Below, in pieces: positions 21,621 through 48,740 of a stretch of 64,000 nucleotides of DNA. Position numbers and translations under genes: made by a program. The stretch is from an archaeon (GTDB lineage Archaea; Nanobdellota; Nanobdellia; Pacearchaeales; GW2011-AR1): the NCBI GenBank assembly GCA_018648095.1, contig JABGRV010000006.1, positions 16,559 through 80,558 on the forward strand, written 5' to 3'. The notes under the pieces are model-generated. The model saw only the letters and a program-made list of their open reading frames with translations, was not told the DNA's origin and did not search any database. Within the stretch, counting starts at the first letter, position 1; each line of letters starts with the position of its first letter.

Positions 21621-21691
21621 CAAACAGTCAGTAAACTGAAAGTTGGGCCCCTGCCTTGGATACTACGTCTTGACCACCCAGTTAATTGGAC

Positions 21692-22153
21692 TTACTTGGG
21701 CGGATACAGAATCATAAGAATAACCAGGAAGAAGCAGACGGATATCACAACAAGCGAAGGAACGCTCGGAATGTAATATCCTTCGAGTCTTTCAATCTCC
21801 TGGAAACTGAAGACGCCACGCCCTTTTTCTCCACAATCCACATGGTACCTGTAACCTTTTTCTGCGCCACCAAAATCCCAATCCCGAATAACGCCTATCT
21901 TCCCTTCGGCAGCGGTATCCCGTTGGACGATCTTGATTTGATCATTGATGTGATACGCCGGGCCCCACCACCAGCAGAGGAAGTAAACTCCTGCAAGGAG
22001 GAGAATCAGGACCGCCCACCCCCGGGGAGATATCTCATTCAACTTTTTGGCAACCGCCCTTAGGGGACGGTAAACGACCAGCAAGGCAATGAACCCCCCA
22101 ATCGTGGCCAACACCTGCCAATGATCACCGGCTATTTTCAAAAGTTCATCCAT
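21692..22153 (-). CDS. family A small 3-TM membrane protein, paralog 1 of 4 in tandem
   Basis: Shares the WQVLATL... N-terminal TM, WWGPAYHIND, GKIGVIRDW and GP.IP..P motifs with the next three ORFs. Confidence 0.55.
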   Translation of the reverse strand: MDELLKIAGDHWQVLATIGGFIALLVVYRPLRAVAKKLNEISPRGWAVLILLLAGVYFLCWWWGPAYHINDQIKIVQRDTAAEGKIGVIRDWDFGGAEKGYRYHVDCGEKGRGVFSFQEIERLEGYYIPSVPSLVVISVCFFLVILMILYPPK

Positions 22154-22251
22154 ACGTCACTTCCTTTCATTCTGTCAATTCTCTTTCTTCTAGCTCATGC
22201 ACACACTGCACGAGTAATGCAAGTAAAAAATACTCCCCCTGTCAAGGGCAA

Positions 22252-22737
22252 TTAATCCAACTTATCCCGGACGATCACCAGGAAGCTTCCCAGAATAAAT
22301 ATGATGAAGGATGGAATTCCGGGGATATAGGGGCCACCCAAACTCCTTATCTCCGCGAACAGAAACTTATGCTTTGCCCCCCCACACTCCACAAAGTAGG
22401 AGTAGTGGGCCATTTCAAGTTTCCAATCTCTGACCACTCCAATTTTCCCGTTGAGCTCGCTTTGCAGTCGCGTAATCTCAACTTCATCATTGGCGCCATA
22501 GACTGGGCCCAACCACCAGCTGAAACAATAAACTATCACTGCAAGGAAAACTATCCCGAAGATCGTCCACATCAGCCACTTTCCGGCTACGCGCCCCCGA
22601 TCAATAGCTTTTCTTACCAAACGATAGCCCACAACCAGAACAGCGCAGGTAGCCAACGTGGCCAGCACTTGCCAATTGTCACAGGCCATTTTCCAAAGAT
22701 CATTCATAACTTCATTTCCTTTCATTTCGATTATCAC
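22252..22737 (-). CDS. family A small membrane protein, paralog 2 (likely start at MNDLWKM, ~22707)
   Basis: Paralogous to 21692..22153. The reported N-terminal extension is probably translated leader. Confidence 0.55.
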   Translation of the reverse strand: MIIEMKGNEVMNDLWKMACDNWQVLATLATCAVLVVGYRLVRKAIDRGRVAGKWLMWTIFGIVFLAVIVYCFSWWLGPVYGANDEVEITRLQSELNGKIGVVRDWKLEMAHYSYFVECGGAKHKFLFAEIRSLGGPYIPGIPSFIIFILGSFLVIVRDKLD

Positions 22738-22832
22738 AACCTCCCAAGGGAGAGCTAGTCATCCGGCCCACTGCCAAACAATCTAGCTCCCCCTTACAAT
22801 CGACCTCTTAATCGAGAGAACGACAACTACGC

Positions 22833-23327
22833 CTAGTCACTCGCGCCTTCTTTCAGCTTCAGGGAATCCATATTCGCGGCGAGAGCTATCAGGCTTCCGA
22901 TTATCATCAGGATAAGCGGAAAAACACTCGGGATATAGCAGGGGCCTTCAAACCTTTTGAGTTCCTGGAAGTGGAATTTTCCCAGTTCTTTCGCCCCATA
23001 ATCCACATGATAGATGAATCCCCCTGGACGAGGACTTTCCCAATCACGGATTATTCCGACCTTTCCTTCCTCGGGGGTATCTCGTTGGACGATCGTGACC
23101 TTTTCGTTGATACCATACACCGGTCCAAGGCCCCATGCGAGGAAGTAAATCACTGCCGAGACAATTACCATCCATACGAGGGTCTTCAACACCCAACCCG
23201 TAGTGAGATTCACATACCTGGAAGCAACCTTCTTTCCCAAGCGATAAATCACGAAGAGGGAGGCGAAGACAGCCAATGTGGCAAATACCTGCCAGTTGTC
23301 GCTCACCATGTTAACAAACTCTTTCAT
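22833..23327 (-). CDS. family A small membrane protein, paralog 3
   Basis: The MKEF..NWQVFATL N-terminus and conserved family motifs. Confidence 0.55.
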   Translation of the reverse strand: MKEFVNMVSDNWQVFATLAVFASLFVIYRLGKKVASRYVNLTTGWVLKTLVWMVIVSAVIYFLAWGLGPVYGINEKVTIVQRDTPEEGKVGIIRDWESPRPGGFIYHVDYGAKELGKFHFQELKRFEGPCYIPSVFPLILMIIGSLIALAANMDSLKLKEGASD

Positions 23328-23428
23328 ATCTCGTTCCTTTCGTTCAATTCATCAAAACCCCCAAAAGGGAGAGCTAGTCATCAAGCCCAATGCCCAACAA
23401 TCTAGCCCTCCCAAGGGTAACGCCATCG

Positions 23429-23917
23429 TCAATATCCGAAGTTCGAAGAGGATTTATTCAGGACGGGTAATCGCAAGTAGATCACCACACAAACCCCGAC
23501 GGCCATTAAAACAAGGATTGGAATGCCCGGGATATGGGGCCCGTTTAACCTCTTCAGGTGCTCAAAACGGAGGCCGTAGGGTTCATCTCCCTTACAATAA
23601 ACAGAATACACATAGCCATTGCCCGGAGCGAGACAATTCCAGGATCTGATTATCCCAGTTTCACCATTTACGTCGCTTCGGGGATAAACTATCTCGACTT
23701 CGTCGTTGATATGATACGCCGGACCCCACCACCAGGTAAAGAAATAGATCCCGGCTACCACAACAACTGCCAACATGACCGTCTTCAGGAACCATCCACG
23801 TGGCAATCCCCGGTACTTGGAAACAACCCTCCTTACCACACGATAGCCCATCAGCAAGGCGACACATCCTGCCAGGGTGGCAAACACTTGCCAATGTCCA
23901 ACAATAAACTCTTTCAT
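23429..23917 (-). CDS. family A small membrane protein, paralog 4
   Basis: MKEFIVGHWQVFATL...WWGPAYHINDEVEIV. Paralogous to the previous three. Confidence 0.55.
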   Translation of the reverse strand: MKEFIVGHWQVFATLAGCVALLMGYRVVRRVVSKYRGLPRGWFLKTVMLAVVVVAGIYFFTWWWGPAYHINDEVEIVYPRSDVNGETGIIRSWNCLAPGNGYVYSVYCKGDEPYGLRFEHLKRLNGPHIPGIPILVLMAVGVCVVIYLRLPVLNKSSSNFGY

Positions 23918-24008
23918 AACTCGTTCCTTTCATTATCTATCTTCATCCCATCTTGCCCGCACACTATGCACGAATAAAACAAGTAGGAAGTAAGTCTTCA
24001 GGCGGCGG

Positions 24009-25298
24009 TCAGGAAGGAGAGGCCAGTTTTATCAGCTTGACCTTTATTTCATCCTTGCTATCCCACCCATATTCGGCCGCTTCCGCAAAGAGATCCAGCC
24101 ACCATTCGAAGTCGCCGTCACCGAGTTCCATCAACTTTCCAAGGAAGATTTCTCCGAGATTGTCAGATTCTCCATCTCCGAGCATCTTGTCGTAGGTCTC
24201 TTTCCAGAGATTGAAGTCGCTACACTCCAACTCTCTGAATATTTCGATTATCCTATCCTCAGAAGGCGAGGAACCCTCTGCGTTTGTGAAGAACTCCCAC
24301 CATTTGTCCGGGCCCCAATTCCTGGGTCGTTCTTCTATCTGGGTGAGGATCAGTCTTTGCCTGTCATGATCTCCATCAAACATCCCGAAGATAGCCTCCC
24401 AGTTCTCAAAGGATACCTCTTCTCTCCCTTCGAGTCTTTTAATGAGGGCATCACACATATTTTCCCAGCCATTATCGTTTGCTTCTTCCAGGAATCCTTT
24501 CAATGTCTCGAAATCTTCCTGGGGGAGTTCGGCCACATTTTCTTCGAGAGCATTGTCCGTAGTTTCATCATCGGCCACCCTATAGGCCTCCATGAGTTGC
24601 CCCATGGTGGTCACTCTCTTGACCAGTTCTTCACCGATCCTTTCCTCGTGCTGATTGTAGCAGTCCCCACGAAGGGTGCACAACTGTTCAAGGGAGGGAT
24701 TGGAAGATAAGAGCAGATCGAGGAAAAGATCTGCGACCATCTTCTTGATGCCCATCTCTTCCTTATCGGCCTCTCCAGATTCTGTATAGATGGTTTTTGC
24801 CTGATCGAAAGTTTGGATGGATCCGCCTACATTTTCGAGAGCGGTCTGTCTGAGGGGAGATCCAGCTTCAGCCACTTCAAGGACAGACTCCCAATCTTCC
24901 GGAGTCCTTGCCCTTCGTGAGATCTGCTCCAGGACTGAACTTTTGAGCGAGGCGTCTCCAGACCTTATGGCCGCATGGCAAAGCTTGATCCAGTTTCCGA
25001 ATTCCGATCCCACACGTTGGAGCATCTGCGTTCCAGCGTGCCGGTGAAGCTCTGACAAATCTTCATTGCCTATCGAGAGTTCGAACAGTCTGAGGTTATT
25101 CTCGAATGTTGAAGCCAATCTGGCGGCTTCACCAAGGGCGCGTTTCTTGAGGGGCTCTTCGGCCTCTCCACTGTAGTACACCTCGATCCACCGATCGAAA
25201 TTCAGATCGGGGGGAGGCGCGTTATCTTGCACATTCCAGATTGCAAGAGCTTTCATTACTCCGACCTGGGCGGCCAGAGATTCAAATGACATTTCCAT
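24009..25298 (-). CDS. acidic alpha-helical repeat protein (Trp-containing FENW/FEWW repeats)
   Basis: 429-aa ORF with an SD-like ggaaaggaa upstream. No family recognised. Confidence 0.45.
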   Translation of the reverse strand: MEMSFESLAAQVGVMKALAIWNVQDNAPPPDLNFDRWIEVYYSGEAEEPLKKRALGEAARLASTFENNLRLFELSIGNEDLSELHRHAGTQMLQRVGSEFGNWIKLCHAAIRSGDASLKSSVLEQISRRARTPEDWESVLEVAEAGSPLRQTALENVGGSIQTFDQAKTIYTESGEADKEEMGIKKMVADLFLDLLLSSNPSLEQLCTLRGDCYNQHEERIGEELVKRVTTMGQLMEAYRVADDETTDNALEENVAELPQEDFETLKGFLEEANDNGWENMCDALIKRLEGREEVSFENWEAIFGMFDGDHDRQRLILTQIEERPRNWGPDKWWEFFTNAEGSSPSEDRIIEIFRELECSDFNLWKETYDKMLGDGESDNLGEIFLGKLMELGDGDFEWWLDLFAEAAEYGWDSKDEIKVKLIKLASPS

Positions 25299-25365
25299 AA
25301 GGATTACCTTCTTTCGTATTATTCTACTTTTTCGATCTATCCCAACACGATGTCAGGACTCTGTT

Positions 25366-25950
25366 TTATCCGTCACTCCGACCTTCAATTTTCTCCAGCT
25401 TTTGGATGACTGCACGCCGGACTTCGCTTCCCTGGGGGGTTCCGAAATAGACATAGGTGGCCTCCCGTTCCCCTTCAGCTTGTTCGAAGTCTTGCCAGCA
25501 CTGCGGGATCCATTTTTGGCGGATAGCCCTCCTTATATCTGAATCTTCCGGAGTGCAAAGATACAGGATCTTCAGTCCCAGTGCACTGTTGGCAGCAAGG
25601 CACCTGGACAAATGGATCCTTTCAATGCGATTCACAAACTCCGGACTGACCTTCCCGCCGAGGATAACACGAAGGTAGAGCTCGAAAAGCTGTTCCTTGT
25701 TCTTCGCATTTTCCAAATGGCCGATAAAGGTCAGATCATCCATCTCTTGGAGATCCTGAACAAGGCGAATCTGGGAATTCATTAAAGCTTCCCTCGAAAA
25801 GCTTTCTTCCTTCACCGAACACCCCGGAGACGTCAGGGATCCACAACAGACAACAACCAACAACCAACAAGGCAGTTTCATAACAATTCTCCCTTCAGAG
25901 AACAAGGAACAGCGCCGGGCACCCCCCAATAAAACATTACCCGGCCCCAT
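25366..25950 (-). CDS. secreted hypothetical protein (probable true start MKLPCWLLVVVCC at ~25881)
   Basis: Signal-peptide-like hydrophobic N-terminus after an internal Met, then a helical domain. Confidence 0.4.
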   Translation of the reverse strand: MGPGNVLLGGARRCSLFSEGRIVMKLPCWLLVVVCCGSLTSPGCSVKEESFSREALMNSQIRLVQDLQEMDDLTFIGHLENAKNKEQLFELYLRVILGGKVSPEFVNRIERIHLSRCLAANSALGLKILYLCTPEDSDIRRAIRQKWIPQCWQDFEQAEGEREATYVYFGTPQGSEVRRAVIQKLEKIEGRSDG

Positions 25951-25978
25951 TCAGGTTAGTGAAAAATCAGGCCATCAA

Positions 25979-26569
25979 TTATTCGGCATCGGCAGTCGGA
26001 ATGTCGCTGAGATCGATCGGAGATCCGTCCGCTCCGCGGTAGGTCCTGAGGAGGATGTCCTCTTCGATGTGGCGTTCGTCGCCATTCGGAAGTTTGATTC
26101 GGATTACTCCTTCCTTATCGCGGATAGCGAGAACCACGTCTTTTTCGTCACGCTTCACGATCCCAGTATAGTCATCGACCATGCGACCAGCCGGCGAAAG
26201 ATGATCATCCACGAAGTCAGTGTCGGCAGTGTACTGGTCACCGCACCCCTGCTCGCCTGCTGCTATAAGGATATCGTCCAGGTTATCTACCGTGGGCGGA
26301 GTCTCCATCATATCCAGAAGTGCCTCGGCGATTTCGCCAGGAACTTCGTTGAGGATAACAACGCCTTTTTCACCGTCTGCGCCCTGCCAGGTTCCGTCGC
26401 CGTCACCGTCAGTTTCGTTGAGAACGAGAATCACCGGACGGTCGTTATTCTGGCCATATCCGGAGACTTCCATATCCTGTTCGAATGCCACAACGACATC
26501 ACTCGCGGGAACCTTGAAGATAAGCTTGCGGGTTGCGGAAACGATTTTAAGACCTTTATCAAAATTCAC
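25979..26569 (-). CDS. acidic hypothetical protein
   Basis: 196-aa ORF with an SD-like motif upstream. Confidence 0.4.
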   Translation of the reverse strand: MNFDKGLKIVSATRKLIFKVPASDVVVAFEQDMEVSGYGQNNDRPVILVLNETDGDGDGTWQGADGEKGVVILNEVPGEIAEALLDMMETPPTVDNLDDILIAAGEQGCGDQYTADTDFVDDHLSPAGRMVDDYTGIVKRDEKDVVLAIRDKEGVIRIKLPNGDERHIEEDILLRTYRGADGSPIDLSDIPTADAE

Positions 26570-26698
26570 AATATTCTCCTTTCTCCGTTTTGGGGAGAAA
26601 AAAAGTAAGGCCCTAACTCTTGTCAGAACCTAAAGATTCCAGCAACTTGCCAGGATCCTTTTAATGTAATGCCATGTTACGTCCCAAAAACTTATCTC

Positions 26699-26806
26699 CT
26701 AATCCTGAGGAGTGTTTCGAATGTGCTTCACAAAACTCCAGATCGCAATCACTCCAGAAAAAGTGGCCCCCGAAGCGATTAAAATCCCTGCAATCTGCTG
26801 TGTCAT
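26699..26806 (-). CDS. 35-aa single-TM micropeptide
   Basis: Not in the ORF track because it is under 60 aa. ATG is preceded by GAAAGGAGTAGAA. Hydrophobic MTQQIAGILIASGATFSGVIAIW. It lies 17 nt downstream of the iGluR-like gene. Confidence 0.3.
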   Translation of the reverse strand: MTQQIAGILIASGATFSGVIAIWSFVKHIRNTPQD

Positions 26807-26822
26807 TTCTACTCCTTTCTGG

Positions 26823-27926
26823 TCAGCTCTCCTTTGAGCCAAACCATTTACGATAGATTTCATCGTATTTACCGCTTTTCCGAATCTTCAACAAGGCGCG
26901 GTTAATCTCTTCTCGAAGATTGCTTCCTTCAGGTACGGCGAAGCCGTAGTATTGTTTGTCGAAAATCGGACCGACAACCCCCACTTCATCCGGGTGTTGC
27001 TGGGCGAAGAAAAGGACACTTGGGGAATCGAAGACAACCGCATCAACCTTCTCCTTAAGCAGGAGATCATACGATTCTTGGATAGAAGGTGTAGCAACCA
27101 CCTTAGCTCCAAGGCCCTTAAGTGTCGTAACACTTGTAGTGCCTTGTGCAGTGGCGACCGTCTTTCCTCTGAGATCTCCCGGATGGTTGATCACCGATTC
27201 AATGGCCTCGATTTCCCGGACCGTAAAAGCTGTGATGATCGGAGCAGAGACAAGGCCGACAATAACGCAGCCGTTGAGGAAGAGGGGGATGGTTAAGAGC
27301 CTTCCCCAAGTCTTCTTGGGATAGATATCTCCAAAACCTATGGTGGTCTTAATTGCCCAGACACACCAGCATGCATCGAAGAATCCTTTCCAATCGTCTG
27401 CGATTACGTCTGCACCCTGTTCAGCCCGCCACAACAAGAATCCCCAAACGAAGAATCCAATGAAGAGGATTCCCAAAAGCCCTGCCATCTCCCAGTTGAA
27501 CAGTCTTCGGAAAATAGACGAGAGGATCGAGGCCTTTTTCTTCTGACCTTTGACAACGATCCTCAATCCGGAATTCATATAGTGGTGTGAGAAGTCGAAA
27601 TTCTCTTCCCGATCCGCGGTAATAAAGATCCCGGACACTGCCACATCAACCTTCCCTGCCTTAACATCCTGCAGAAGTTGGTCAAATTCCGAACCCTTGT
27701 ACTGCTTGTACTCAATCTCCCAGTTGAGTTCTCCAGCAATCGCCTCAATTATTTCGATGTCTGATCCCGAAAGGCCAGACTTCGTTGAGGAACTTTCCAT
27801 CACGCATGGGCGGAAGATTCCCGCACCAATAGTGATTTTCTTTTTTTCCTGCGCTTGCACCGGGGAAACGACTGCCGCCAGAACAAGTACACCAATAACA
27901 ATCAGAAAGGCGGTTTTTTGCTTCAC
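26823..27926 (-). CDS. prokaryotic ionotropic glutamate receptor-like ligand-gated ion channel (GluR0-type; SBP_bac_3 lobes S1-M1-P-M2-S2)
   Basis: Signal peptide, periplasmic amino-acid-binding lobe 1, TM M1, a pore helix with K+-channel-like TTIGFGD, TM M2, then lobe 2 (GKTVATAQGTT...YGFAVPEGS). Confidence 0.7.
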   Translation of the reverse strand: MKQKTAFLIVIGVLVLAAVVSPVQAQEKKKITIGAGIFRPCVMESSSTKSGLSGSDIEIIEAIAGELNWEIEYKQYKGSEFDQLLQDVKAGKVDVAVSGIFITADREENFDFSHHYMNSGLRIVVKGQKKKASILSSIFRRLFNWEMAGLLGILFIGFFVWGFLLWRAEQGADVIADDWKGFFDACWCVWAIKTTIGFGDIYPKKTWGRLLTIPLFLNGCVIVGLVSAPIITAFTVREIEAIESVINHPGDLRGKTVATAQGTTSVTTLKGLGAKVVATPSIQESYDLLLKEKVDAVVFDSPSVLFFAQQHPDEVGVVGPIFDKQYYGFAVPEGSNLREEINRALLKIRKSGKYDEIYRKWFGSKES

Positions 27927-27968
27927 CTTGAGCTCCTTATATCGGAGGTTATTGAAATAGAAAAAACA

Positions 27969-28139
27969 TCATTTCTTTTTTCGCTGTCTTCTCCCCCCTC
28001 CCGAAGATAAGCGTTCCATGAGCCTTCCCCAGATTTGTTCAGCTAAGCTCATCGCCTCGGCATCCTTTCTAGGATCGGCAAAAGCCTTACCTGCAAATCT
28101 TCTGGGCAAGTTCCATGTTTGTTGTTCTGAGCTATTCAT
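27969..28139 (-). CDS. 56-aa basic small protein
   Basis: Not in the ORF track. ATG preceded by GGAGAAAGGAACGAGCA. Co-directional with its neighbours. Confidence 0.25.
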   Translation of the reverse strand: MNSSEQQTWNLPRRFAGKAFADPRKDAEAMSLAEQIWGRLMERLSSGGGRRQRKKK

Positions 28140-28213
28140 TGCTCGTTCCTTTCTCCACGCCTAAGGTGGGGATTTATTGGTCAATCAACGTCTTGCGGAC
28201 CGACTTGCAGGCA

Positions 28214-37905: not shown

Positions 37906-38757
37906 CTAGGAGAGTGATGACGTGATTGAGTCAATCAGCTTACTCAGATTTGCTGAAAGAATCTGGATGGCGAGGGAACGACCCCGGGCTTCAGAGGTCG
38001 AAAGTCCTTTGGACTCTTTCAGGAGGACAGCAATAGCGACCCTTTCGGGGAGCCCGGCTTTCAACATCGAATCCAGTTTCCTGCGCTGTTCCGTAACTCT
38101 CAGCTTGACGAGCTCCATTCGCGCGTCCTGCGTACCTTCCTTCACTTCGAGGGCCAGTTCGTGGAACACGCCAAGCAGACCGCCGATGGACTCGCGATTG
38201 TCTGCGAGAATGTCGATGACGATGTCCTTGAGGCCATTGACCTTTCCAAGATACGGTCCGATGTCCTGGACATAGGACTTGGCTATCGCGCCGGCGATGA
38301 ACATATTCACCTGCGTTTTGAGTGCCCGGATCGCTGTATCGTACTGCTCTCCAGCTTCGGAGATCTGATTCCGGCGCAGGGAAACCTGATCCATGTGATC
38401 TCCGACGAGAGCCACAATGGAACTTACCCTGCCGTGAACGTCCTCCGACAAGGAATCGGGTGAGCCGCCATTCTGGATAAGAAAATCGAGGTTCTCATAG
38501 GTCCGAACCGCATCCTGAATTTCGGAGAGCTCGAGAGCGGTTTGGATATTCCTTTGGACTGCCTCGAGATTGTCTGTCAGGGGGGAGAGTGTCTCCGCCT
38601 TCTCACTTTCAAGCTCGCCAATCTGCTTACGCGCTTCCCCCACCGCTACCTGGATGCTTTCCGGAAGATCCTCGGTGGGAACGTTTTCGAATTTGCCCAT
38701 CAACTCCGCGAGAAGTTTCCCGATTCGGGAGTTTTCGTCAACAGTTATAAAACTCAT
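37906..38757 (-). CDS. family C alpha-helical coiled-coil protein, paralog 2
   Basis: 283 aa. See 36993..37805. Confidence 0.5.
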   Translation of the reverse strand: MSFITVDENSRIGKLLAELMGKFENVPTEDLPESIQVAVGEARKQIGELESEKAETLSPLTDNLEAVQRNIQTALELSEIQDAVRTYENLDFLIQNGGSPDSLSEDVHGRVSSIVALVGDHMDQVSLRRNQISEAGEQYDTAIRALKTQVNMFIAGAIAKSYVQDIGPYLGKVNGLKDIVIDILADNRESIGGLLGVFHELALEVKEGTQDARMELVKLRVTEQRRKLDSMLKAGLPERVAIAVLLKESKGLSTSEARGRSLAIQILSANLSKLIDSITSSLS

Positions 38758-38852
38758 AATCTTTACCTTTATTCAACGTCTTGTTCGCAAAATCCCAGCT
38801 ACACTAGCCGAGAATATTTCATCATTTACTGCAAAAAACCTGCCAACCGCAA

Positions 38853-39338
38853 TCACTTCTTCAGGCACGGATCGGCCAACGTCATGCTGAACCAGCGGGA
38901 TTCATGCCACCTGAGTTTAGCTTTTGTAGCGTTCAGGTTCTGAGTCAACTGGAAGACGTCGTTACGAAGTTTTGCAAGGTGACTGATTTTCTTCGCCAGG
39001 AGAACATCGCTTTTCACTTCGGGCAGTCGAAGCAGGAACGTTCGCGAAAGATTCTCAAACCACCCCTTCTCCAGCGGATAGCTCTTGATGCAGGCTTCGA
39101 TATCTGCCTTGACATCTTCGTACTCGGCCCGCTTCGCCACGATATCGTCCTGAATCCTTTGGATATTAACACGGTGATCCAGAACATGGTAGGTACAAAC
39201 CCCGGTGGGGATCAGGAGGATTACCGAAACAATAATTGCCGCAGTTGTCCATCCCCAGAAATAGTTTGCGTCTCTTGTGCTTATGCCCGCAATGATCGCC
39301 ATAACGAACAGGAATGCTGGAATCAATAACCAAATCAT
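38853..39338 (-). CDS. family D N-terminal 2-TM plus cytoplasmic coiled-coil protein, paralog 1
   Basis: 161 aa. Conserved IVAK.AEY..V...A.I..YPLEKG.F..LSRT.LL..PE and W.S.WFSM.L..P. Confidence 0.5.
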   Translation of the reverse strand: MIWLLIPAFLFVMAIIAGISTRDANYFWGWTTAAIIVSVILLIPTGVCTYHVLDHRVNIQRIQDDIVAKRAEYEDVKADIEACIKSYPLEKGWFENLSRTFLLRLPEVKSDVLLAKKISHLAKLRNDVFQLTQNLNATKAKLRWHESRWFSMTLADPCLKK

Positions 39339-39426
39339 GGTTTTTTCCTTTCTGTCTTGTTTTTTTAAAGTCTCAGCTACACTAGCCGAGAATATTTCAT
39401 CATTTACTGCAACAACCTCGCAGGAA

Positions 39427-39912
39427 CTAGTCCTTTTCGGGATACGGCGAGATCAGCGACATGCTGAACCAGGCGGAGTGCCAGTCGAGACAGCCTTTGT
39501 TCTCATTCAGCTCCACATTAAGCTTGTAGATCTCGTCTTCGAGTTCTGCCATCTGTTTCAGCTTTGCTACAAGGAGAGAGTCTCCCCTTATCTCAGGCAT
39601 CTTGAGGAGCAATGTCCGCGAGAGACTCCCAAACAATCCCTTCTCCAGTGGATACTTCGCTATGCTGGCATCGGCGCAGTTCTCCACTTTCTTGTATTCG
39701 GCCTGTTTCGCCACGATGTTTCGCTGAATCGTCCGCATATTCACCTGGGCGTTATAGACCCTGAATGTAGCCGCGATAGTCGGAATCAGAAGGGCGATCA
39801 GGCCGATGACTCCCACTGCAACCAGTCCGGGAGTGTAATCTTTTTTCTGCCGGTTAGCAAAGTAGGCCCAAAACAGGGAAATTATGGGGATAAGGAACAA
39901 TGAATGGATCAT
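39427..39912 (-). CDS. family D 2-TM plus coiled-coil protein, paralog 2
   Basis: 161 aa. Same length and motifs as 38853..39338. Confidence 0.5.
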   Translation of the reverse strand: MIHSLFLIPIISLFWAYFANRQKKDYTPGLVAVGVIGLIALLIPTIAATFRVYNAQVNMRTIQRNIVAKQAEYKKVENCADASIAKYPLEKGLFGSLSRTLLLKMPEIRGDSLLVAKLKQMAELEDEIYKLNVELNENKGCLDWHSAWFSMSLISPYPEKD

Positions 39913-40066
39913 GATTTTTACCTTTCTTCAACGTCTTGTTAACAAAAGGCGGCGGGCTGGCTCACACCACACATTAAAGCACAATGCAAGCCAACAAACC
40001 CGCCACCATTATTACGAAATGTTATCCGCTACCAACAGCCCTGGGCGACCGAGTCCCTTCATCGCC

Positions 40067-41041
40067 TTACGACTTTTGCAAACGTCGGGATCGGAGTCGG
40101 CGCTTCAGCATGACCAGACCGCCGGAAGCCAGCAGGATCATCGTGGCGGGCTCGGGCGCGTGCTGAGATTCCATGGGCACCGCGGCCTTGAACGCTTCGA
40201 CATCTGAACCGGTGTAAAAGGCGGAGAAATCGATGTCCACCCTCATGCCGAGGACGTCATCGCCCCACCAATAGAGATCGCCGATGCCAAGGCCCGCGTA
40301 ATCGATCTTGCCATCTTCGAGCCGGAAGTCCATGCTGGCACGGATGTCGTCTGTGAGGATCCTTGTCCACTCATCGCTGTCCTGGTCGATTTGCACATAA
40401 TCATACTGGTGGTGCATCTCGATGCTGGCGCTGAGGTTGATGCCGCCCATGTTGTAGTAATAATTCGATCCGGGGGGCGTCGGCCAGTTGGCGATTTCAT
40501 CGGCGTCGCTAGTGAACAGGAACTGCATCTCGCCGGAGATCTGGAATCGAATACCTTCTTCTTCGTCATTCCAGTATTTGTCGTCATTCCGGTAGATGCG
40601 GAGTTCCGTGCTATACGGATAGACATACATCTTTTCGCCGAGATAGGTGAAACGGTCCTGGTTGAGGTAGAGGTTTGCATCTCCGCGCACCTGTTGAGGG
40701 TGGATATGCATATCCGAATACTCATTGCCGGCCATATCCGTCCACTTGGTGAGATGTTCCCACGCTTCCTCAACCTCGGTATTGACGTTGATGTCAAGGC
40801 CGTCGCTGTTGTACCCAATGTTTGTCTGCCGATCCGGGAGTTCGGGCAGTGTAATGCCGCCGCCGGAACCACCGCTTCCGCCACCAGTAGATGTCGGTTC
40901 TTCGATCGTCGGCGTGACGATCTCGACAGTCGGCGTAAAGGTCTCGGTCACCATAATCACACCGCCGTCCGCTACGTTGTTAATCATCCCGAAACCGCAG
41001 AAAATCACGGCTGCCAATACGATAGTTGCGATTGTCTTCAT
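40067..41041 (-). CDS. secreted Gly/Thr-linker protein with C-terminal PEP-CTERM sorting signal
   Basis: N-terminal signal peptide. The C-terminus is APEPATMILLASGGLVMLKRRLRSRRLQKS: a PEP motif, a hydrophobic helix and a basic cluster. Confidence 0.55.
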   Translation of the reverse strand: MKTIATIVLAAVIFCGFGMINNVADGGVIMVTETFTPTVEIVTPTIEEPTSTGGGSGGSGGGITLPELPDRQTNIGYNSDGLDINVNTEVEEAWEHLTKWTDMAGNEYSDMHIHPQQVRGDANLYLNQDRFTYLGEKMYVYPYSTELRIYRNDDKYWNDEEEGIRFQISGEMQFLFTSDADEIANWPTPPGSNYYYNMGGINLSASIEMHHQYDYVQIDQDSDEWTRILTDDIRASMDFRLEDGKIDYAGLGIGDLYWWGDDVLGMRVDIDFSAFYTGSDVEAFKAAVPMESQHAPEPATMILLASGGLVMLKRRLRSRRLQKS

Positions 41042-41194
41042 GAGTCTTTCCTTTTGTACGTCTTGTTTTGTACGTCCCGATTACATCTCAGGCTTCGGCA
41101 ACAAGCCAAAACCAATCCTTCAAGTCCCTCACAAACCTTTCGTCCACATCTTACTGCCACGTCTTCCTCAGCGTCTCCTTTCTCGCTAGAGGTT

Positions 41195-41377
41195 TTATTT
41201 CCACCCGAACTTGTCGACTTCGGCCTGATAGTCATCACCAGGGGTCAGGTCATCTTCTTCGTCTTCGAAGACTTCGAGATCTGAGTGATCGACCGCCGGA
41301 GGGGGGCCTTGCAGGATTCTCTCACCAATAAGGTGTTCTTCCCCGCCGGGCCGTCCTTTTGTTGTCATTGCAACCAT
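41195..41377 (-). CDS. 60-aa acidic small protein
   Basis: The only ORF in a ~500-bp gap. Co-directional. Low confidence. Confidence 0.2.
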   Translation of the reverse strand: MVAMTTKGRPGGEEHLIGERILQGPPPAVDHSDLEVFEDEEDDLTPGDDYQAEVDKFGWK

Positions 41378-41538
41378 TTTCTTTACCTCACATACGAGTT
41401 ACGGAATAGTCCTTTTCACAAATAAGCTCAGAATAAATTCACCTCTCCCAACTTTGGGAATACACTGTTAATGAAAGGTCCTGCCCAGATCTATCAAATC
41501 GAGCATCTGGGCAGAACCCACAAAACATTACGGACTCA

Positions 41539-42021
41539 TTAGGCATACTCTTGCTGCCCAGGGTCTTTCTTAAAGCCGATCCGAGGAACAAGTAACAGGA
41601 GCATAACGAAAACCGTAAAGAACCGGTAATTCATCTGCTCGATAGTCGTATAGTCGCTCAACTGAATGGCTTCATAGACACCATTCCATGCATCGCCGAT
41701 GACCATAACGACATGTTGGACGCCATAGACCACATCACCAACAATCACTCCAAGAGGATTATCTGCAAGAGTCTTCTTGAAGCCCTCTTCCATAATCGCC
41801 CGTTTGACGGTCACAGAAGTCTGCGCGAACGCGATAGTCATGAACGCGAAGAACAGGATCTGCTTCCCCTTTCCGTGGCGAATCAGACACATGGTCATAA
41901 AGTAGGCCAACATGCCAGAACCAACGGCGAGTAAAGCGTGATAGCTGTCGTGATCAAGCGCGATGCCAAGCGTAACGACAACAACGAAACCGATTATATG
42001 GCTAGCCTTGTAACTATTCAT
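41539..42021 (-). CDS. 4-TM membrane protein
   Basis: 160 aa with four hydrophobic segments and an SD-like gaaaggaaac upstream. Confidence 0.45.
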   Translation of the reverse strand: MNSYKASHIIGFVVVVTLGIALDHDSYHALLAVGSGMLAYFMTMCLIRHGKGKQILFFAFMTIAFAQTSVTVKRAIMEEGFKKTLADNPLGVIVGDVVYGVQHVVMVIGDAWNGVYEAIQLSDYTTIEQMNYRFFTVFVMLLLLVPRIGFKKDPGQQEYA

Positions 42022-42050
42022 GATAGTTTCCTTTCGTTAAATACCGCGAA

Positions 42051-42314
42051 TTAGTCACGGGCCGGACGACCGGATCCGCGGCTTTTTCTTCTTCTCTCGG
42101 AGTTATCACCGTAGGGGTCTGTGAGAGTTACTTCACTTCCATCCTTGGTTTTTCTCCAACCGAGATCCTTTGTGGCAGCCTGAGCCTTTCCAATTTTAAA
42201 ACTGTACTTGTACTCGAGCTCCTCGAACTTGCCACCACAGCCGCTAACCAACATCATCGAAATCGCGAATACGGCTACCATTACGAAACAGATTGTCTTG
42301 TTCATCTTGAGCAT
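42051..42314 (-). CDS. small lipoprotein (lipobox LVSGC)
   Basis: Signal peptide ending L-V-S-G-C, then a hydrophilic domain. Confidence 0.5.
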   Translation of the reverse strand: MLKMNKTICFVMVAVFAISMMLVSGCGGKFEELEYKYSFKIGKAQAATKDLGWRKTKDGSEVTLTDPYGDNSERRRKSRGSGRPARD

Positions 42315-42576
42315 TACAAATCTCCTTCCAGCGCTTGAGCAGCGCAGGATAAATTAGGAGCATCCATGCTCGTTTAGTCATCCATGTAAACAACAACACC
42401 CAGCGTCGTTGTACACAGTGACTGAGAGACTCCTCAACATCCTTATCTCTCAATCCCTCCAACAACAACTAACAATACGACTGTACGCATACATCAAACG
42501 TCCCAAGATTTAACGTTGTTCTCCTTTCGTCGCTCTCTGCGCGCCTAAACTTCAGGCACTTTTGTTTATCCGTCAG

Positions 42577-43305
42577 CTACTTCAAGCCATGGCGTTCTTT
42601 CCATAGCTTGAGAAACTCCCCTAAACCTTCCGCCGTCGCGAGTATTCTATCCACGGGACCTTCTTCCTTAATGAATTCTGAAGGATCAAGATCCTCAAGC
42701 CGACCACTCTCCATCGCTGCTGACAACTTATCGCCTAATTTGTCCATGTCGCCGAGCACCTGCCGAATATTCCACGGTGCACTGACAAACGACTCTATCG
42801 CTTCTTCGAAAGGCGTTTTGGCTCTCCCTTCAACAGAAACCCAGCACCGATGAATTCTGTCCAAATCTCCAGACTTCATGTTGCCGGGTTTAAAACCAGT
42901 GGCCTCAACCAACCAATACGTCTGCTCTCCCTCCGAGTCGGGCATTCTATCGGTTGTTCCGGGGGCAGCGATGCATGCACTGAAATTCCTTCCCTCCAGA
43001 GGATTCTCATCAGGTTCTTCTTGGTACGGCTTCCAGACTTCAACTGCAAATCGGACGAGAACTGCGCCCTCGAACCTTGTTTTGCTGGCCCTCAAAAGTA
43101 TGGTTCCATCTTCCTTTTCATCTCCCTCGTAAACTTGGAAAAGATCGAAGATGTTATCCAATGAGAAGCACACTTTGCTCTCCTTACCGTGTTTTTGTCC
43201 AAACCAGACCTTGCATTCGGCATCAGGGTCATATCCGTACTTAAGGTCAATTTCGATGATCTTCGCAGCCTTCTCTGATTTTTTATTCGTCTTTTTCACT
43301 TTCAT
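42577..43305 (-). CDS. family E soluble protein, paralog 1
   Basis: 242 aa. Lys-rich N-terminus, then ~K.W.G.K.G....F....I.D.F....Y..L.L.ASK..FEGA...R.A.E.. shared with 43352..44068. Confidence 0.5.
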   Translation of the reverse strand: MKVKKTNKKSEKAAKIIEIDLKYGYDPDAECKVWFGQKHGKESKVCFSLDNIFDLFQVYEGDEKEDGTILLRASKTRFEGAVLVRFAVEVWKPYQEEPDENPLEGRNFSACIAAPGTTDRMPDSEGEQTYWLVEATGFKPGNMKSGDLDRIHRCWVSVEGRAKTPFEEAIESFVSAPWNIRQVLGDMDKLGDKLSAAMESGRLEDLDPSEFIKEEGPVDRILATAEGLGEFLKLWKERHGLK

Positions 43306-43351
43306 TTCCTTTCTCTGCGCGCCTAAACTTCAGGCACTTTTGTTTGTTCGA

Positions 43352-44068
43352 CTATTCCCTGCCGTGGAGATCTTTCAGGGGCTTGACGAACTTTTCATAG
43401 ATGCGGGCGGCCGCTTCGAGTGTTTCCATCAGAGGGCCACCTTCTCGGATAATCGCTGCCAGATCGAGATCTTTGAGCTCGTAATCTCTCTTTGCCCAGT
43501 ACAATCTTTGCCCCGATTTGAGTAGCGATTCCAGGTTTCGTCGGATCGTGTCGGTATTCTCACTGAACACGTCAACCAGATCCTCGGCGGGCGTTTGGAC
43601 TTTCTTCTCCACCCGGAGGTAGATCGTGTGGATTACTCTCTCTCCGAGTTTTTGGTTGCCTGCGCGAAAACCGCCGACCCGAGACAACCAGCGCACATTG
43701 GCCCCGTATGTGTCGCGGTTCGGATCTTTCGTCCTCGAGGCAGTGATCTGTGTCCAATACTTTCTCACAGGGATAGTAGTTCTTGGCAGACCACCCATTG
43801 CGGACCGAACCTCTCCTTCCTCATAGGCTTCGATTGCGATCCTGATGGGGATTGCACCTTCGAAATCTTCTTTGCTGGCCGTCAGGTGCAGCTTTCCATA
43901 AGCCACCTTGATACCGAAGAAATCGGAGAGGTCCTTGTGTGAAATCTCCAGCGTGGACTTCCCATCGAACTTACTGCCGAACCAAGTCCCCATTTTCGTA
44001 TTGTAGTGGAGGGTCATCTCGGCGATTTTCGGCTTCTTCGTCTCGGGTTTTTTCATAGTCTTATTCAT
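43352..44068 (-). CDS. family E soluble protein, paralog 2
   Basis: 238 aa. Paralogous to 42577..43305. Both are preceded by the leader ctctgcgcgcctaa(ac)ttcaggcacttt. Confidence 0.5.
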   Translation of the reverse strand: MNKTMKKPETKKPKIAEMTLHYNTKMGTWFGSKFDGKSTLEISHKDLSDFFGIKVAYGKLHLTASKEDFEGAIPIRIAIEAYEEGEVRSAMGGLPRTTIPVRKYWTQITASRTKDPNRDTYGANVRWLSRVGGFRAGNQKLGERVIHTIYLRVEKKVQTPAEDLVDVFSENTDTIRRNLESLLKSGQRLYWAKRDYELKDLDLAAIIREGGPLMETLEAAARIYEKFVKPLKDLHGRE

Positions 44069-44124
44069 CTCTAATTTCCTTTCTCTGCGCGCCTAATCAG
44101 GCACTTTGTAAATTTCGACCAGGC

Positions 44125-44826
44125 TTAGGGGGTGTTCTCTGGAATTCTCACGATCTTGGCCGGTCTGAAATTGAATGCGCGGATATCGCCCATTACTTCA
44201 TTTGCCGCTTCATTCCAGGAGGGATAACCATTTCCCATCGGGAACCAGTCTGAGTGAGTAAAGATATAAATCTCAATCGACCAATTCCCGTCTTCTTCCC
44301 GCGAGATCCGGTAGCCGGGGTTATCATCGAGATAAACCGTCCATTCCTGATCACTCGAACCCCTCAGAAATACCACAATCACCTTCAGAGTCATTCGTCG
44401 AATGACGTAGGAGGAGATCAGGAGGACTATCCAGGCTGCTAGGAAGAAGTAAAGAATCCCGTTGTTATAACCCGAGATCAAGAAACAGGCTCCGACCAGG
44501 GTAACTAGAACAACATAACCTGCTAGGAGCCCCTTCCAGGGATAGAAGTTCCTTCTCAGGAAGCTAATCGGGAAAACCTCTCCGAGAACGGCGAATACCA
44601 GCACAAGGCTGCCAATACCTATGCCCCTCAGGAGCATATTCGGTCCGCCGTTCGCAGGTCCGATGGTCTCGGAAGGTTGCGTCTCTGCCTTAGCTTCAGC
44701 AGCTTGCTCTTTAGCCCATTGCCCAAGAGCATCCGCCTGACCGAAAGCAACGCCCCCAAAACAAACCAGCACCAACAAACAAATTGTCACGAATGTAATT
44801 CTCATGCGATGGTTCCTTTCTCCCAA
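44125..44826 (-). CDS. membrane protein (signal peptide plus ~4 TM)
   Basis: 233-aa ORF. Confidence 0.4.
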   Translation of the reverse strand: MGERNHRMRITFVTICLLVLVCFGGVAFGQADALGQWAKEQAAEAKAETQPSETIGPANGGPNMLLRGIGIGSLVLVFAVLGEVFPISFLRRNFYPWKGLLAGYVVLVTLVGACFLISGYNNGILYFFLAAWIVLLISSYVIRRMTLKVIVVFLRGSSDQEWTVYLDDNPGYRISREEDGNWSIEIYIFTHSDWFPMGNGYPSWNEAANEVMGDIRAFNFRPAKIVRIPENTP

Positions 44827-44830
44827 GCAA

Positions 44831-45118
44831 TCATGCCCGAGTTATTGATGTTCCTTCTGAATCGACTACGAGGGAGATGCCATAGAGGCCCCAAGCTATC
44901 ATCATCAAAAGGATGAAAATTACCCCTATCCTCTTGTCCGTCGCACTCATCCCTTCCTTAGGGGATTGGGTGGTGACTGATCTTTCTGCCTCTCCACTTC
45001 CAACAGTTGGTGAATCCTGGGAGTGGTTGATGGCGTTCAGGACAATACAGCTAACTAAAATCGCAATCATCATCAGTACCAATATTACTCCGACCTGGAC
45101 TTTTGTACGAGTAAGCAT
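44831..45118 (-). CDS. family F 2-TM small protein, copy 1
   Basis: 95 aa, about 75% identical to 47769..48056. Confidence 0.5.
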   Translation of the reverse strand: MLTRTKVQVGVILVLMMIAILVSCIVLNAINHSQDSPTVGSGEAERSVTTQSPKEGMSATDKRIGVIFILLMMIAWGLYGISLVVDSEGTSITRA

Positions 45119-45130
45119 AATAGGTTCCTT

Positions 45131-45430
45131 TCATGAACCTTTGGTTTCAGTTGGATCTTCTTCAGAGTCATACGTCGCTGTGCGAAGCTTGTTACCTGAA
45201 ATAATACATCTCCCCGCAAAAAGCATAATCGCAGCTCCAGAGAGGACAATGAACCAGGGGGGCGGAATTCCGGGACCGGGGGAGGCTCCTTGGAACAATA
45301 TTCCTTGGAACAATATTACCTCGTATGTGGCGATGGCCATCCCCGCAAGGACTCCCATGAGGCCGATAATCATGATCACAATTCCGTCGGTCCGGTATTT
45401 ACGTATACCTTTTTTCGTTTCTTTCATCAT
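45131..45430 (-). CDS. small 2-TM protein
   Basis: 99-aa ORF. Confidence 0.35.
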   Translation of the reverse strand: MMKETKKGIRKYRTDGIVIMIIGLMGVLAGMAIATYEVILFQGILFQGASPGPGIPPPWFIVLSGAAIMLFAGRCIISGNKLRTATYDSEEDPTETKGS

Positions 45431-45474
45431 CTCGAGTTTCCTTTCATGCGCCTTTCACCAGATGGCGATAGGCA

Positions 45475-46332
45475 CTAGTTGTTCGATTTAGGCTGCGTAG
45501 CCGCATCAGCCGGAGGATCAACAGGGTCCCAGGAGATCTTGTAATAGAATCTCCGATCTTTGTCGAGCGGGACCGGTTTCTCGAAGGGGAAAGATACAGC
45601 CTTCTTCTCGTCCTTCTCGAATTTCACCTGGACGGGGGACTTGGTGGCGTGAATGCCCGTAGTTCCATCCGTCTCGGTGTAGGTCAGTAAATTCCCTACG
45701 GCATCTGTGAACCTGCAGCTGATGAGATACTCTCCAGCCTTATTTGCCACGATCTGGGTGAAGAGGGTGTTGGGATCTTTCCAATCCAACTTTTCTTCAA
45801 AGACTTCCAGGTCGGGAATCTGAGGCGTAGGAGGCGTTATCACCGGTTTCGGCTTCGGTTTGATCGTTACCGGAGGCGTTATCACCGGTTTCGGCGGCTG
45901 AACGATCGGCGGGATGAAGGGTTTCGGCTGAACAATGGGCTCAACCTTCGCCGAATCACTGCCAGTGCTTCCACCTTCCCACGGTTTAACAATCCAGAGG
46001 CCGACTGTTATCCCTACAATCATTGTGACGAAGAGAAGAATTACCACCCACTTATTCCTCTTCGCCCTTTTAATCCGATCCTTTTTCCACTGCGGAACCT
46101 CTTTTTCCGGGGCCTGTTCAACGGGTGCCGGTTCGGGAGCAGGCTGGAAGGTTCCGGGAATCGGAATCTTGTTCTGGCACTTACGGCAAAAGGCGACCTT
46201 TCCCGCATTTTCATCCGTGACCCTGAATCTCGCACCACATTTATCACACTGAATCTTGATCATCTTTCTTTCCTTTCCCACGCTAATTGCGCGGAGTTGT
46301 GAGTTTAACATCTCTTTCCTTACCACCAACAC
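45475..46332 (-). CDS. zinc-ribbon (CxxC..CxxC) - TM - Pro-rich linker - extracytoplasmic domain protein (true start MIKIQCDKCG at 46263)
   Basis: The ATG at 46263 is preceded by GGGAAAGGAAAGAAAG. CDKCG..CRKC zinc ribbon, one TM, PxxP repeats. Confidence 0.45.
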   Translation of the reverse strand: MLVVRKEMLNSQLRAISVGKERKMIKIQCDKCGARFRVTDENAGKVAFCRKCQNKIPIPGTFQPAPEPAPVEQAPEKEVPQWKKDRIKRAKRNKWVVILLFVTMIVGITVGLWIVKPWEGGSTGSDSAKVEPIVQPKPFIPPIVQPPKPVITPPVTIKPKPKPVITPPTPQIPDLEVFEEKLDWKDPNTLFTQIVANKAGEYLISCRFTDAVGNLLTYTETDGTTGIHATKSPVQVKFEKDEKKAVSFPFEKPVPLDKDRRFYYKISWDPVDPPADAATQPKSNN

Positions 46333-46613
46333 TCATCAATGGGAAGGCATGTCTTTCGCGAGTTCAGCTTGTCTTGTTCTTCCTGGGGGAGCCGGCTAAC
46401 CCGATGTAATTCAATCAGGACAGCACTGGCAATCAGAACCCCACTAAAGATCAAGGCGCATTCCCCATGCCCAAACATCTTGAGACCGAGAAACACCTCA
46501 CTGAATCCAGAGAGAAGGAACGTGAGCCCCACTAAGAGAAACAAGTAAGAGGACGCCTTCAAGAAGGCATTCTCACTGAACAACTTAGACCAAAACGTTG
46601 CAGCCATGATCAT
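46320..46613 (-). CDS. small 2-TM membrane protein
   Basis: 97-aa ORF. Confidence 0.3.
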   Translation of the reverse strand: MIMAATFWSKLFSENAFLKASSYLFLLVGLTFLLSGFSEVFLGLKMFGHGECALIFSGVLIASAVLIELHRVSRLPQEEQDKLNSRKTCLPIDECWW

Positions 46614-46631
46614 CTCCTTTCACACTCGAAC

Positions 46632-47000
46632 TTAATCCGAGTGTTTGTTTGGTTTGAGGGACTTGAGGATCTTGCAAAAGACCAAGAAGGCAATGACTGC
46701 AAGACAGCCAATCACCACCATAAGAACTACAATGTTCTTTTTCCCCAGATCCCGCACACGATCTATTTCCAGGGGTCTTCCTGCTTCAGGATCTTCACCT
46801 TCCTGCACTTCTTTCTTGGGCGTTGTCGTTTCGTTTTCAGCAGGCTGCACAGCCGCTGCCTCCGTCTTGCCACTGTTCTCATTCTGCCCTTTCTCATCTC
46901 TCTGGAGATGTTTAACGATTGCGACCGCCGCCACACTCCCCAGAAGAAGCAGAACAATTGTGACTAATAGGCTGTTATCGACATGTCCTGTCCTTTTCAT
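46632..47000 (-). CDS. 2-TM membrane protein with acidic loop
   Basis: 122-aa ORF. Confidence 0.35.
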   Translation of the reverse strand: MKRTGHVDNSLLVTIVLLLLGSVAAVAIVKHLQRDEKGQNENSGKTEAAAVQPAENETTTPKKEVQEGEDPEAGRPLEIDRVRDLGKKNIVVLMVVIGCLAVIAFLVFCKILKSLKPNKHSD

Positions 47001-47743
47001 GATCCTTCTCCCCCCTCACTTCTGACCTTCTCTATGAGTGTCTCAATACTGTTTGGAGAACCCATCATGCCCAGCCCATTCTCACGGCCCTTTATTCCGA
47101 CGAAATCTCCATCGAACAGCCCGCCGGCAAAGGAGAATCTGGCGCCAGGGCAATTGAGATCTACGAAAGACATGCCCCCGCCAATCTTCAGACCTTCACC
47201 AAAGTGGATCTGAGCGCCATTTAGAATCTCCATGTTCATGAGGTTAATGCATCCATGAAGAGTAGAGTTCCGAAATTCCATTGAGTCTCGGAGATTTCCG
47301 AAGAAAATGCAGTTGGACAATTCGGAGGAACCCATCCGAATATCTCCAATGGTACATTCGGGACAGGTATGGATATCATGGCACGTAGCCTTGAATTTGA
47401 CGAGTCCCAAACCCTTGATGTTCACCTTTTCAATGTTAAGCCCATGGTTTCCCACCTTGCTTTGTCCAGTTATCTCGAAGTCAATGAAACCCAACGAGTT
47501 GAGAGACACACCTTTGACTTCGAATATCTCAGGAACAGTAATGTTCATGAGTATGACATCGTGATCTGCGGGGATGCCCTGCTCCGGCGTGAGTGTGAAA
47601 GGGCCAGTAAGTTCAAAACCATTAACTATTGTCCTTTTATCCCCACCACTACTGGCATTCCCGATACTACTCTGGATCACCCGAGAAAAGTTTTCAGGGG
47701 AGATTTTCTTTCTTTCAGTTTTTTCTGTGTTTGGACAGTCCAT
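46997..47743 (-). CDS. Gly/Asn-rich probable beta-helix repeat protein
   Basis: 248 aa. Short irregular repeats with G/N/I/F periodicity. Family uncertain. Confidence 0.35.
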   Translation of the reverse strand: MDCPNTEKTERKKISPENFSRVIQSSIGNASSGGDKRTIVNGFELTGPFTLTPEQGIPADHDVILMNITVPEIFEVKGVSLNSLGFIDFEITGQSKVGNHGLNIEKVNIKGLGLVKFKATCHDIHTCPECTIGDIRMGSSELSNCIFFGNLRDSMEFRNSTLHGCINLMNMEILNGAQIHFGEGLKIGGGMSFVDLNCPGARFSFAGGLFDGDFVGIKGRENGLGMMGSPNSIETLIEKVRSEGGEGS

Positions 47744-47768
47744 GATCTGTTTCCTTTCACCCAGGCAA

Positions 47769-48056: not shown

Positions 48057-48085
48057 AATCAGCTCCTTTCAGAACCTTCTTGGCG

Positions 48086-48526: not shown

Positions 48527-48740
48527 TGACTAGAAAAGACATCCACTCTAGACGTTTTATCTTCTTGATCATTTTACTGACCTTTCTTTTCTCCCGTGCT
48601 TTCCGCACATTGTTCTTCAATGATGTTTCCAATCCTAACGACCTAGCGTAGACCGCCCCGGCCCAGATTTGACTTAGGCCGACCGGGGCGGCTTGGCGGT
48701 AGATCGTCGAGATTAGTTCTCGCTACCTCCGCCGATCACG

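Follow-up and report, generated by a model that had tools for sequence, protein, structure and literature searches.

A probable GluR0-type glutamate receptor channel gene on a compositionally foreign island in an archaeal genome

The stretch of DNA analysed here, 64,000 nucleotides (nt) of contig JABGRV010000006.1 and hereafter the window, to which all coordinates refer, carries on its minus strand a gene (26823..27926) that very probably encodes a channel subunit of the GluR0 type, that is, a 'Group 1' prokaryotic ionotropic glutamate receptor (iGluR). The product has 367 amino acids (aa), the start codon is GTG and the stop codon TGA (26823..26825), and a Shine-Dalgarno site AAGGAG (27933..27938, minus strand) stands 6 nt before the GTG within the upstream 20-mer TCCGATATAAGGAGCTCAAG. 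The gene lies in an island of about 40 kb (21650..61850) that is foreign in composition as judged by GC content, GC at third codon positions (GC3), Shine-Dalgarno usage and sparse Pfam matches, and it is followed by a micro-ORF (open reading frame, ORF) of 35 aa. The exact channel protein is present on 23 public contigs.

Read from the N-terminus, with all parts on the minus strand, the protein begins with a predicted signal peptide of about residues 1-25, MKQKTAFLIVIGVLVLAAVVSPVQA followed by QE (27852..27926), which is hydrophobic over residues 1-19, is helical in the structural model over residues 2-19 and has a VQA motif that would mark the cleavage site. About residues 26-130 (27537..27851) make up S1, one half of the ligand-binding clamshell. 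S1 contains F101 and R106 and is delimited by a Lig_chan-Glu_bd match and by alignments to PDB entry 2pyy, GluA2 S1S2 and GlnBP. It is followed by a pre-M1 helix (134-142) and the transmembrane (TM) helix M1 (145-168), together 27423..27527 and assigned by DSSP on the model and by alignment to KcsA TM1. The pore helix (179-195) and the K+ selectivity filter TTIGFGD (194-200; 27327..27347) occupy 27327..27392 according to the sequence, the KcsA alignment and the model; TTIGFGD conforms to the K+-channel signature T-x-G-[YF]-G-D. The inner helix M2 (206-237; 27216..27311), a model helix aligned with KcsA TM2, ends in the motif SAPIITAFTV, which leads into the S2 half of the clamshell (240-367; 26826..27209) with G263-T264-T265 and D300; residues 237-366 align with 2pyy at 87 bits. 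In M2, P229, A233, F234 and R237 are invariant in the family alignment A3, and the closest clade shows no variation in TTIGFGD. There is no amino-terminal domain (ATD), as S1 begins straight after the signal peptide, and no fourth TM helix (M4), the C-terminus being KWFGSKES; the protein stops 5 residues past the conserved KWFG, and about 80 relatives are alike in this. Upstream of the gene, no Rfam match at E<=1 was obtained for an RNA element or riboswitch. The 287-nt spacer just upstream holds a 56-aa ORF (27969..28139, minus strand) with the basic tail GGGRRQRKKK, which is preceded by the island start context AAAGGAACGAG and was annotated as a gene by one pipeline (locus L005).

The preliminary description of this locus had proposed that a two-TM pore with a TTIGFGD filter interrupts an amino-acid-binding fold, as in the architecture of GluR0, and the domain, sequence and structure searches agree with it. 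The Pfam profile SBP_bac_3, which it had suggested as a check, matched at 1.5e-29 with an envelope of 47-363 interrupted by residues 131-239, while Lig_chan-Glu_bd matched residues 39-127 (1.7e-8; 35.0 bits against a cut-off of 30) and Ion_trans_2 matched residues 168-234 (7e-11; 42.3 bits against a cut-off of 22.5). The best sequence match in the PDB was the ligand-binding core of a Nostoc GluR0 homologue (2pyy, 1.1e-35), with residues 38-129 and 237-366 matched separately, and it was followed by glutamine-binding proteins and then by GluR0 itself (1ii5, 3.8e-16) and GluA1-GluA4 chains (about 1e-15). When residues 131-245 were excised and searched, KcsA was the top match (7.6e-11), aligning end to end through TM1, pore helix, filter and TM2, with its TTVGYGD against TTIGFGD of the channel. 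A structure predicted by AlphaFold2 from 50 homologues (mean predicted local distance difference test score, pLDDT, 93.5; predicted template modelling score 0.80) contains the signal, pre-M1, M1, pore and M2 helices at the residues given above with alpha/beta lobes on both sides, and pLDDT is 85-97 per 10-residue block over residues 141-240. The re-entrant pore loop (P-loop) between two TM helices, which had been named beforehand as a further check, is present in this model and agrees with the KcsA alignment. In a Foldseek search against the PDB, the best 50 matches were all AMPA-receptor chains comprising the ligand-binding domain (LBD) and the TM domain (TMD), with E-values of 5e-25 to 9e-23 over about 370-385 columns. 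Because the E-values are far under chance and the exact protein recurs on the public contigs, these domain and motif matches are not chance.

The binding site was compared with GluA2 S1S2 and E. coli GlnBP. The beginning of GluA2 S2 was wrongly aligned by MAFFT, and the equivalences in S2 were therefore drawn from GlnBP only. R106 aligns with GluA2 R485 and GlnBP R75 and is invariant among the closest ten relatives, and D300 aligns with GlnBP D157 and is invariant across the 50 homologues. By established structural work, GluA2 R485 and GlnBP R75 bind the alpha-carboxylate and GlnBP D157 the alpha-amino group, and the channel probably binds some alpha-amino acid. Phe101 occupies the position of GluA2 T480 and GlnBP T70, a position that is Ser, Thr or Pro in the homologue rows displayed (every second of the 50). 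The ligand specificity may thus be unlike that of GluR0, as a Phe stands in place of a ligand-contacting Thr or Ser.

By homology with GluR0, the channel would work as follows. Once the signal peptide is cleaved, S1 and S2 would form a two-lobed clamshell outside the cell, similar to GlnH/SBP_bac_3 proteins. The pore that breaks this clamshell in two is KcsA-like but would be inverted relative to KcsA, so that the P-loop would enter from the cytoplasmic face. Four subunits would assemble into a K+-selective pore. An L-amino acid would be held by R106 at its alpha-carboxylate and by D300 and the G263-T264-T265 turn at its alpha-amino group, and the closure of the clamshell on this ligand would pull the S1-M1 and M2-S2 linkers and open the gate. 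Architecture, fold, filter and binding-site residues are demonstrated by the present analysis, and tetramerisation, K+ selectivity, gating, ligand identity and physiological role we infer by homology; for the topology, the N-terminal hydrophobic helix with its VQA motif is seen here, and experimental topology exists for Synechocystis GluR0 only.

Several points weigh against the assignment to the GluR0 type or against a working channel of that kind. The profile Lig_chan (PF00060) gave no match to the channel at E<=1 and is absent also from the precomputed domains of the identical protein P0001, although PF00060 is recorded for the more distant homologues P0011-P0062. The preliminary description had regarded a hit to this profile as necessary. 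This expectation was misplaced and the absence is not decisive, because the K+-filter receptors of Group 1 are defined through Ion_trans_2 by Ger et al. 2010, in whose scheme the halves of the binding domain flank two TM helices and a P-loop with an Ion_trans_2 (IPR013099) K+ filter (PMC2950845). Phe101 might impair or retarget ligand binding. In a host whose genes are without Shine-Dalgarno sites, the island genes may not be expressed efficiently. Finally, there is no measure of selection within the lineage because the 23 contigs that carry the gene are about 100% identical. The protein is a well-supported new member of a known family, is itself under-annotated in GenBank, and is not a new kind of system.

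Relatives of the channel are uncommon, as the preliminary description had suggested: search patterns from a 10-sequence alignment matched 310 relatives in a scan of 185,579 species genomes. The best 80 of the 310 are all bacterial and belong to Victivallales, Leptospirales, Gammaproteobacteria, Desulfobacterales, Patescibacteria, cyanobacteria, Hyphomicrobiales and others, and the relatives in cyanobacterial genomes are just 31-35% identical to the channel. The filter reads TTIGFGD in the closest relatives and TTVGYGD in the next clade of the family alignment, and the K+ signature is lost in several of the most distant members displayed, which have GGFEER (P0050, P0053), GGAENK (P0055) or GGCENK (P0057, P0060). 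In gammaproteobacterial relatives (L012, L014, L015; P0005, P0007) the channel gene follows a conserved cluster of DUF2617, a protein of about 538 aa without a family match, DUF350 and a spermine-synthase-like gene, and the channels P0005 and P0007 carry a long acidic, GEGEGE-rich N-terminal extension.

The boundaries of the island are visible in the base composition. GC in 2-kb windows is 0.36-0.43 (mostly 0.36-0.40) from position 1 to about 22,000, about 0.50 inside the island and 0.37 after about 62,000, and GC3 is 0.557 +/- 0.053 in 40 island ORFs and 0.543 in the channel gene, against 0.307 +/- 0.034 in 19 flank ORFs. A Shine-Dalgarno site of the AGGAG type precedes 22 of the 40 island ORFs (a perfect AAGGAG in 11) and none of the 19 flank ORFs; conversely, 22 of the 33 AAGGAG hexamers on the coding strand of the island are followed by a start codon, mostly that of a long ORF. 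The island genes are nearly all on the minus strand. A Pfam scan at a threshold of 1e-3 of 47 ORFs, 45 from the island and two from the right flank, matched 7 families only (MVP_shoulder, Vault_3, Zot, a PARP-like repeat, KIF21A_4th, a zinc ribbon and PEP-CTERM), and PHROGs gave four weak matches.

The flanks carry genes for ribosomal protein S6e, aIF-2/aIF5B (645.8 bits against a cut-off of 468) and an archaeal-type GluRS, and the closest named relatives of aIF5B (72-74% identity) are labelled Pacearchaeota or Nanoarchaeota. From these flank genes and the aIF5B relatives it is concluded that the host is an archaeon, probably of the DPANN type; the NCBI labels on the metagenome-assembled genomes that carry the gene are 'archaeon' or 'Candidatus Bathyarchaeota archaeon'. 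The left junction, where the PPDK gene stands beside the island, is not an assembly artefact, since it recurs in assemblies from several samples and assemblers. Given the foreign composition of the island and the bacterial origin of the closest channel relatives, the channel gene most likely arrived by horizontal transfer as part of the island, the source being bacterial or a mobile element.

Several other genes of the island were recorded. A homologue of MVP, the major vault protein (918 aa, 30606..33362, minus strand; MVP_shoulder 9.1e-25, Vault_3 3e-5) is located 2.7 kb upstream of the channel gene. Searched against a database, it gave 1965 matches at E<=1e-10; those that are named and 38-42% identical are mostly bacterial, but the contig of the closest, P0211, also carries aIF5A-like archaeal genes (L099). 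In Archaea, MVP homologues have been reported only recently, from the Asgard group (PMC12962969). At the left edge (21692..23917, minus strand) stand four tandem paralogues of about 153-164 aa with three predicted TM helices each, 40-43% mutual identity and no family match; three of the four have the near-identical start context GAAAGGAA, the exception being 22252..22737 with its GTG start. Further tandem duplicates lie at 33879..36851, 36993..38757, 48741..51709 and 58041..59314, all on the minus strand. Two membrane proteins of the island, of 494 and 453 aa, share 70% nucleotide identity and identical 20-nt upstream regions, and the other duplicate pairs or triplets have near-identical upstream motifs except 36993..38757 (80% nucleotide identity over about 209 nt). 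A tRNA-Val(TAC) gene (60712..60785, minus strand) is located about 1 kb inside the right edge, within DNA of island composition and not at the boundary. A Walker A motif occurs at residue 31 of a 238-aa ORF (43352..44068, minus strand), which is the probable source of the Pfam Zot match (5.3e-5). In the low-GC flank abutting the right edge, a 418-aa ORF (62667..63923, minus strand) gave weak matches to CedD, a DNA-translocating ATPase, and could bear on the arrival of the island. A defence island was also considered for this region and rejected, as PADLOC gave weak HerA/mad8 matches only, which probably stem from this flank ATPase.

The micro-ORF MTQQIAGILIASGATFSGVIAIWSFVKHIRNTPQD downstream of the channel gene (26699..26806, minus strand; ATG at 26806, stop ending at 26699) encodes a single predicted TM segment. 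The preliminary description was right about the 35-aa single-TM peptide itself but gave its distance from the channel gene as 17 nt, whereas the gap from the channel stop to the ATG is 16 nt. An AAGGAG stands 5 nt upstream of the ATG, no terminator-like site was found between the two genes, and a terminator-like hairpin of 10 pairs followed by T7 (26598..26631, minus strand) lies 3' of the micro-ORF, before the next gene. Several gene callers and pipelines annotate the micro-ORF as a gene. The micropeptide is probably co-transcribed with the channel and translated.

Whether the peptide has anything to do with the channel is a separate matter, and it is reasonably likely that the two are unrelated, the micro-ORF being either a product of chance or a small membrane protein that belongs to the island in its own right. 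It is an orphan, as HMMER, run exhaustively over 1.84 billion representative proteins, found nothing but the peptide itself, and it is not kept beside homologous channels: no such micro-ORF follows the nearest channel homologues (39-54% identity), and no conserved downstream TM micro-ORF was found among 85 related channel loci. A hydrophobic small ORF occurs nearby in 7 of these loci only (L025, L030, L031, L032, L037, L063, L092); none of them resembles the micropeptide, and they are mostly out-of-frame overlaps. In addition, small membrane proteins without an assigned function abound on the island. The 10 loci with an identical channel protein are 99.9-100% identical, and apparent differences in their gene content are differences between gene callers; as the public copies of the locus are all identical, selection on the micropeptide is not measurable and no sign of purifying selection is seen. 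However, the perfectly spaced AAGGAG and ATG in an intergenic position argue for translation and thus against mere chance.

Another possibility, which we regard as unlikely, is that a mobile element or virus carries the channel as cargo for its own ends, for example to manipulate the membrane potential of the host or to exclude competitors, and not for amino-acid sensing by the host. The foreign GC3 and translation signals of the island, its one-directional gene order, the many tandem paralogues, the internal tRNA-Val and the weak Zot and terminase-like matches are in line with this, as are relatives of the channel on two large, putatively viral IMG/VR contigs. Against it, families of integrase, capsid and portal proteins were not detected by Pfam and PHROGs on the island ORFs, flanking direct repeats of at least 13 nt were not found at the island edges, and the island itself is absent from IMG/VR. 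A provirus as such was rejected on these observations together with the weakness of the PHROG matches and the lack of att-like edge repeats longer than 12 nt. The two relatives on IMG/VR contigs are L096 (9920..11065 on IMGVR_UViG_3300037247_001786, 461 kb), which is 38% identical to the channel, has a STVGFGD filter and is surrounded by many small unannotated ORFs, and L097 (IMGVR_UViG_3300009514_000888, 186 kb), which is 33% identical.

The preliminary description had considered the micropeptide a possible auxiliary subunit of the channel, a suggestion that found no comparative support and is to be seen as a speculation of low probability. According to it, the peptide would be a dedicated subunit or a stand-alone equivalent of M4 that packs on M1/M2 and modulates assembly or gating. 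The short gap with the island's own start signal, the hairpin common to both genes, the lack of a terminator-like site between them and the annotation by several gene callers speak for such a role. The positive-inside rule also predicts that the N-terminus of the peptide is out and its basic, KHIR-containing C-terminus in, which is the orientation of iGluR M4. Small single-TM proteins are encoded or assembled with K+ transporters or iGluRs in other systems, namely KdpF of the Kdp K+ pump, KCNE and the single-pass auxiliary proteins of iGluRs, and the micropeptide is like these in size and in its single TM segment; in contrast to this likeness, it has no sequence relationship to them and is not conserved. 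Besides the lack of homologues and of an equivalent micro-ORF, the related loci offer no fused C-terminal TM helix in its place, as all readable protein ends in the 85 loci fall within 0-9 residues of the end of the query. The hydrophobicity of the peptide is modest (1.34 in a window of 17-19 residues), and channels of the GluR0 type function without M4 (PMC13099474). An auxiliary role is therefore improbable, and it is very improbable that the peptide is a separately encoded third TM helix that docks on M1/M2 with its N-terminus out and C-terminus in like the eukaryotic M4. If it were true, a DPANN-like archaeon would possess, on an island gained by horizontal transfer, an iGluR architecture of three TM helices assembled in trans. 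A fused M4 was also looked for in longer homologues and rejected, because P0005-P0007 owe their additional length to the N-terminus and each of them stops at KWFG.

That the protein is not a channel but the substrate-binding protein of an ATP-binding cassette (ABC) importer, as its NCBI name 'transporter substrate-binding domain-containing protein' and matches to the NCBIfam models for GlnH and the lysine/arginine/ornithine-binding (LAO) family might suggest, is extremely unlikely, since these matches score far under the curated cut-offs (138.8 against 303 bits for GlnH and 109 against 256 for LAO) and are broken by the 110-residue insert that is the KcsA-like pore, and since no ABC permease or ATPase family was detected in the 47 scanned ORFs.

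It is accepted that channels of the GluR0 type link K+ channels to the glutamate receptors of synapses, but few have been studied. The understanding of the GluR0 family is unchanged by this copy and the points that it adds are modest. It provides an instance in an archaeal genome where the 2010 survey had none, it is a clear case of a GluR0-type gene travelling on a large block of DNA of foreign composition, and its pocket with Phe in place of Ser or Thr could serve studies of specificity. A misleading database name, 'transporter substrate-binding protein', is also corrected.

The family has been known since 1999, when Chen et al. reportedly described GluR0 (Synechocystis slr1257) as a K+-selective amino-acid-gated channel. 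The present protein shares with GluR0 and the Nostoc punctiforme homologue (1ii5, 2pyy) the order signal peptide-S1-M1-P-loop-M2-S2, the signal peptide here being a predicted one, the filter of the K+-channel signature, the lack of an ATD and of M4, and the Arg/Asp pair that binds the amino acid. It differs from GluR0 in its filter (GFGD here and GYGD in GluR0), in Phe101 at the position of the ligand-contacting Ser or Thr, and in the location of the gene on a foreign island in an archaeal chromosome. GluR0 resides in the plasma membrane, is able to complement K+ uptake and is oriented in the membrane the other way round from KcsA, and a physiological role for a channel of this type was first shown in 2026 in Synechocystis (PMC13099474). 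The gene also fits Group 1 of Ger et al., with halves of the glutamate-receptor type flanking two TM helices and a P-loop with the Ion_trans_2 filter; that survey did not find Group 1 and Group 2 receptors in Archaea (PMC2950845), whereas the genes flanking the island here are archaeal. Compared with KcsA, the pore module can be aligned from end to end, but its orientation in the membrane is presumably inverted, and gating would be by an extracellular clamshell and not by pH as in KcsA. Unlike the eukaryotic iGluRs, the protein has no ATD, M4 or C-terminal domain and no PF00060 match, and it carries a K+ filter where they have a cation pore with a Q/R/N site. The gate motif at the end of M2 reads SAPIITAF where eukaryotic iGluRs have SYTANLAAF, which it may resemble. 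The fold of the LBD and TMD is that of AMPA, kainate and NMDA receptors, with GluA1-4 at the top of the Foldseek matches over about 380 columns, and the gating logic would likewise be the one that these receptors use.

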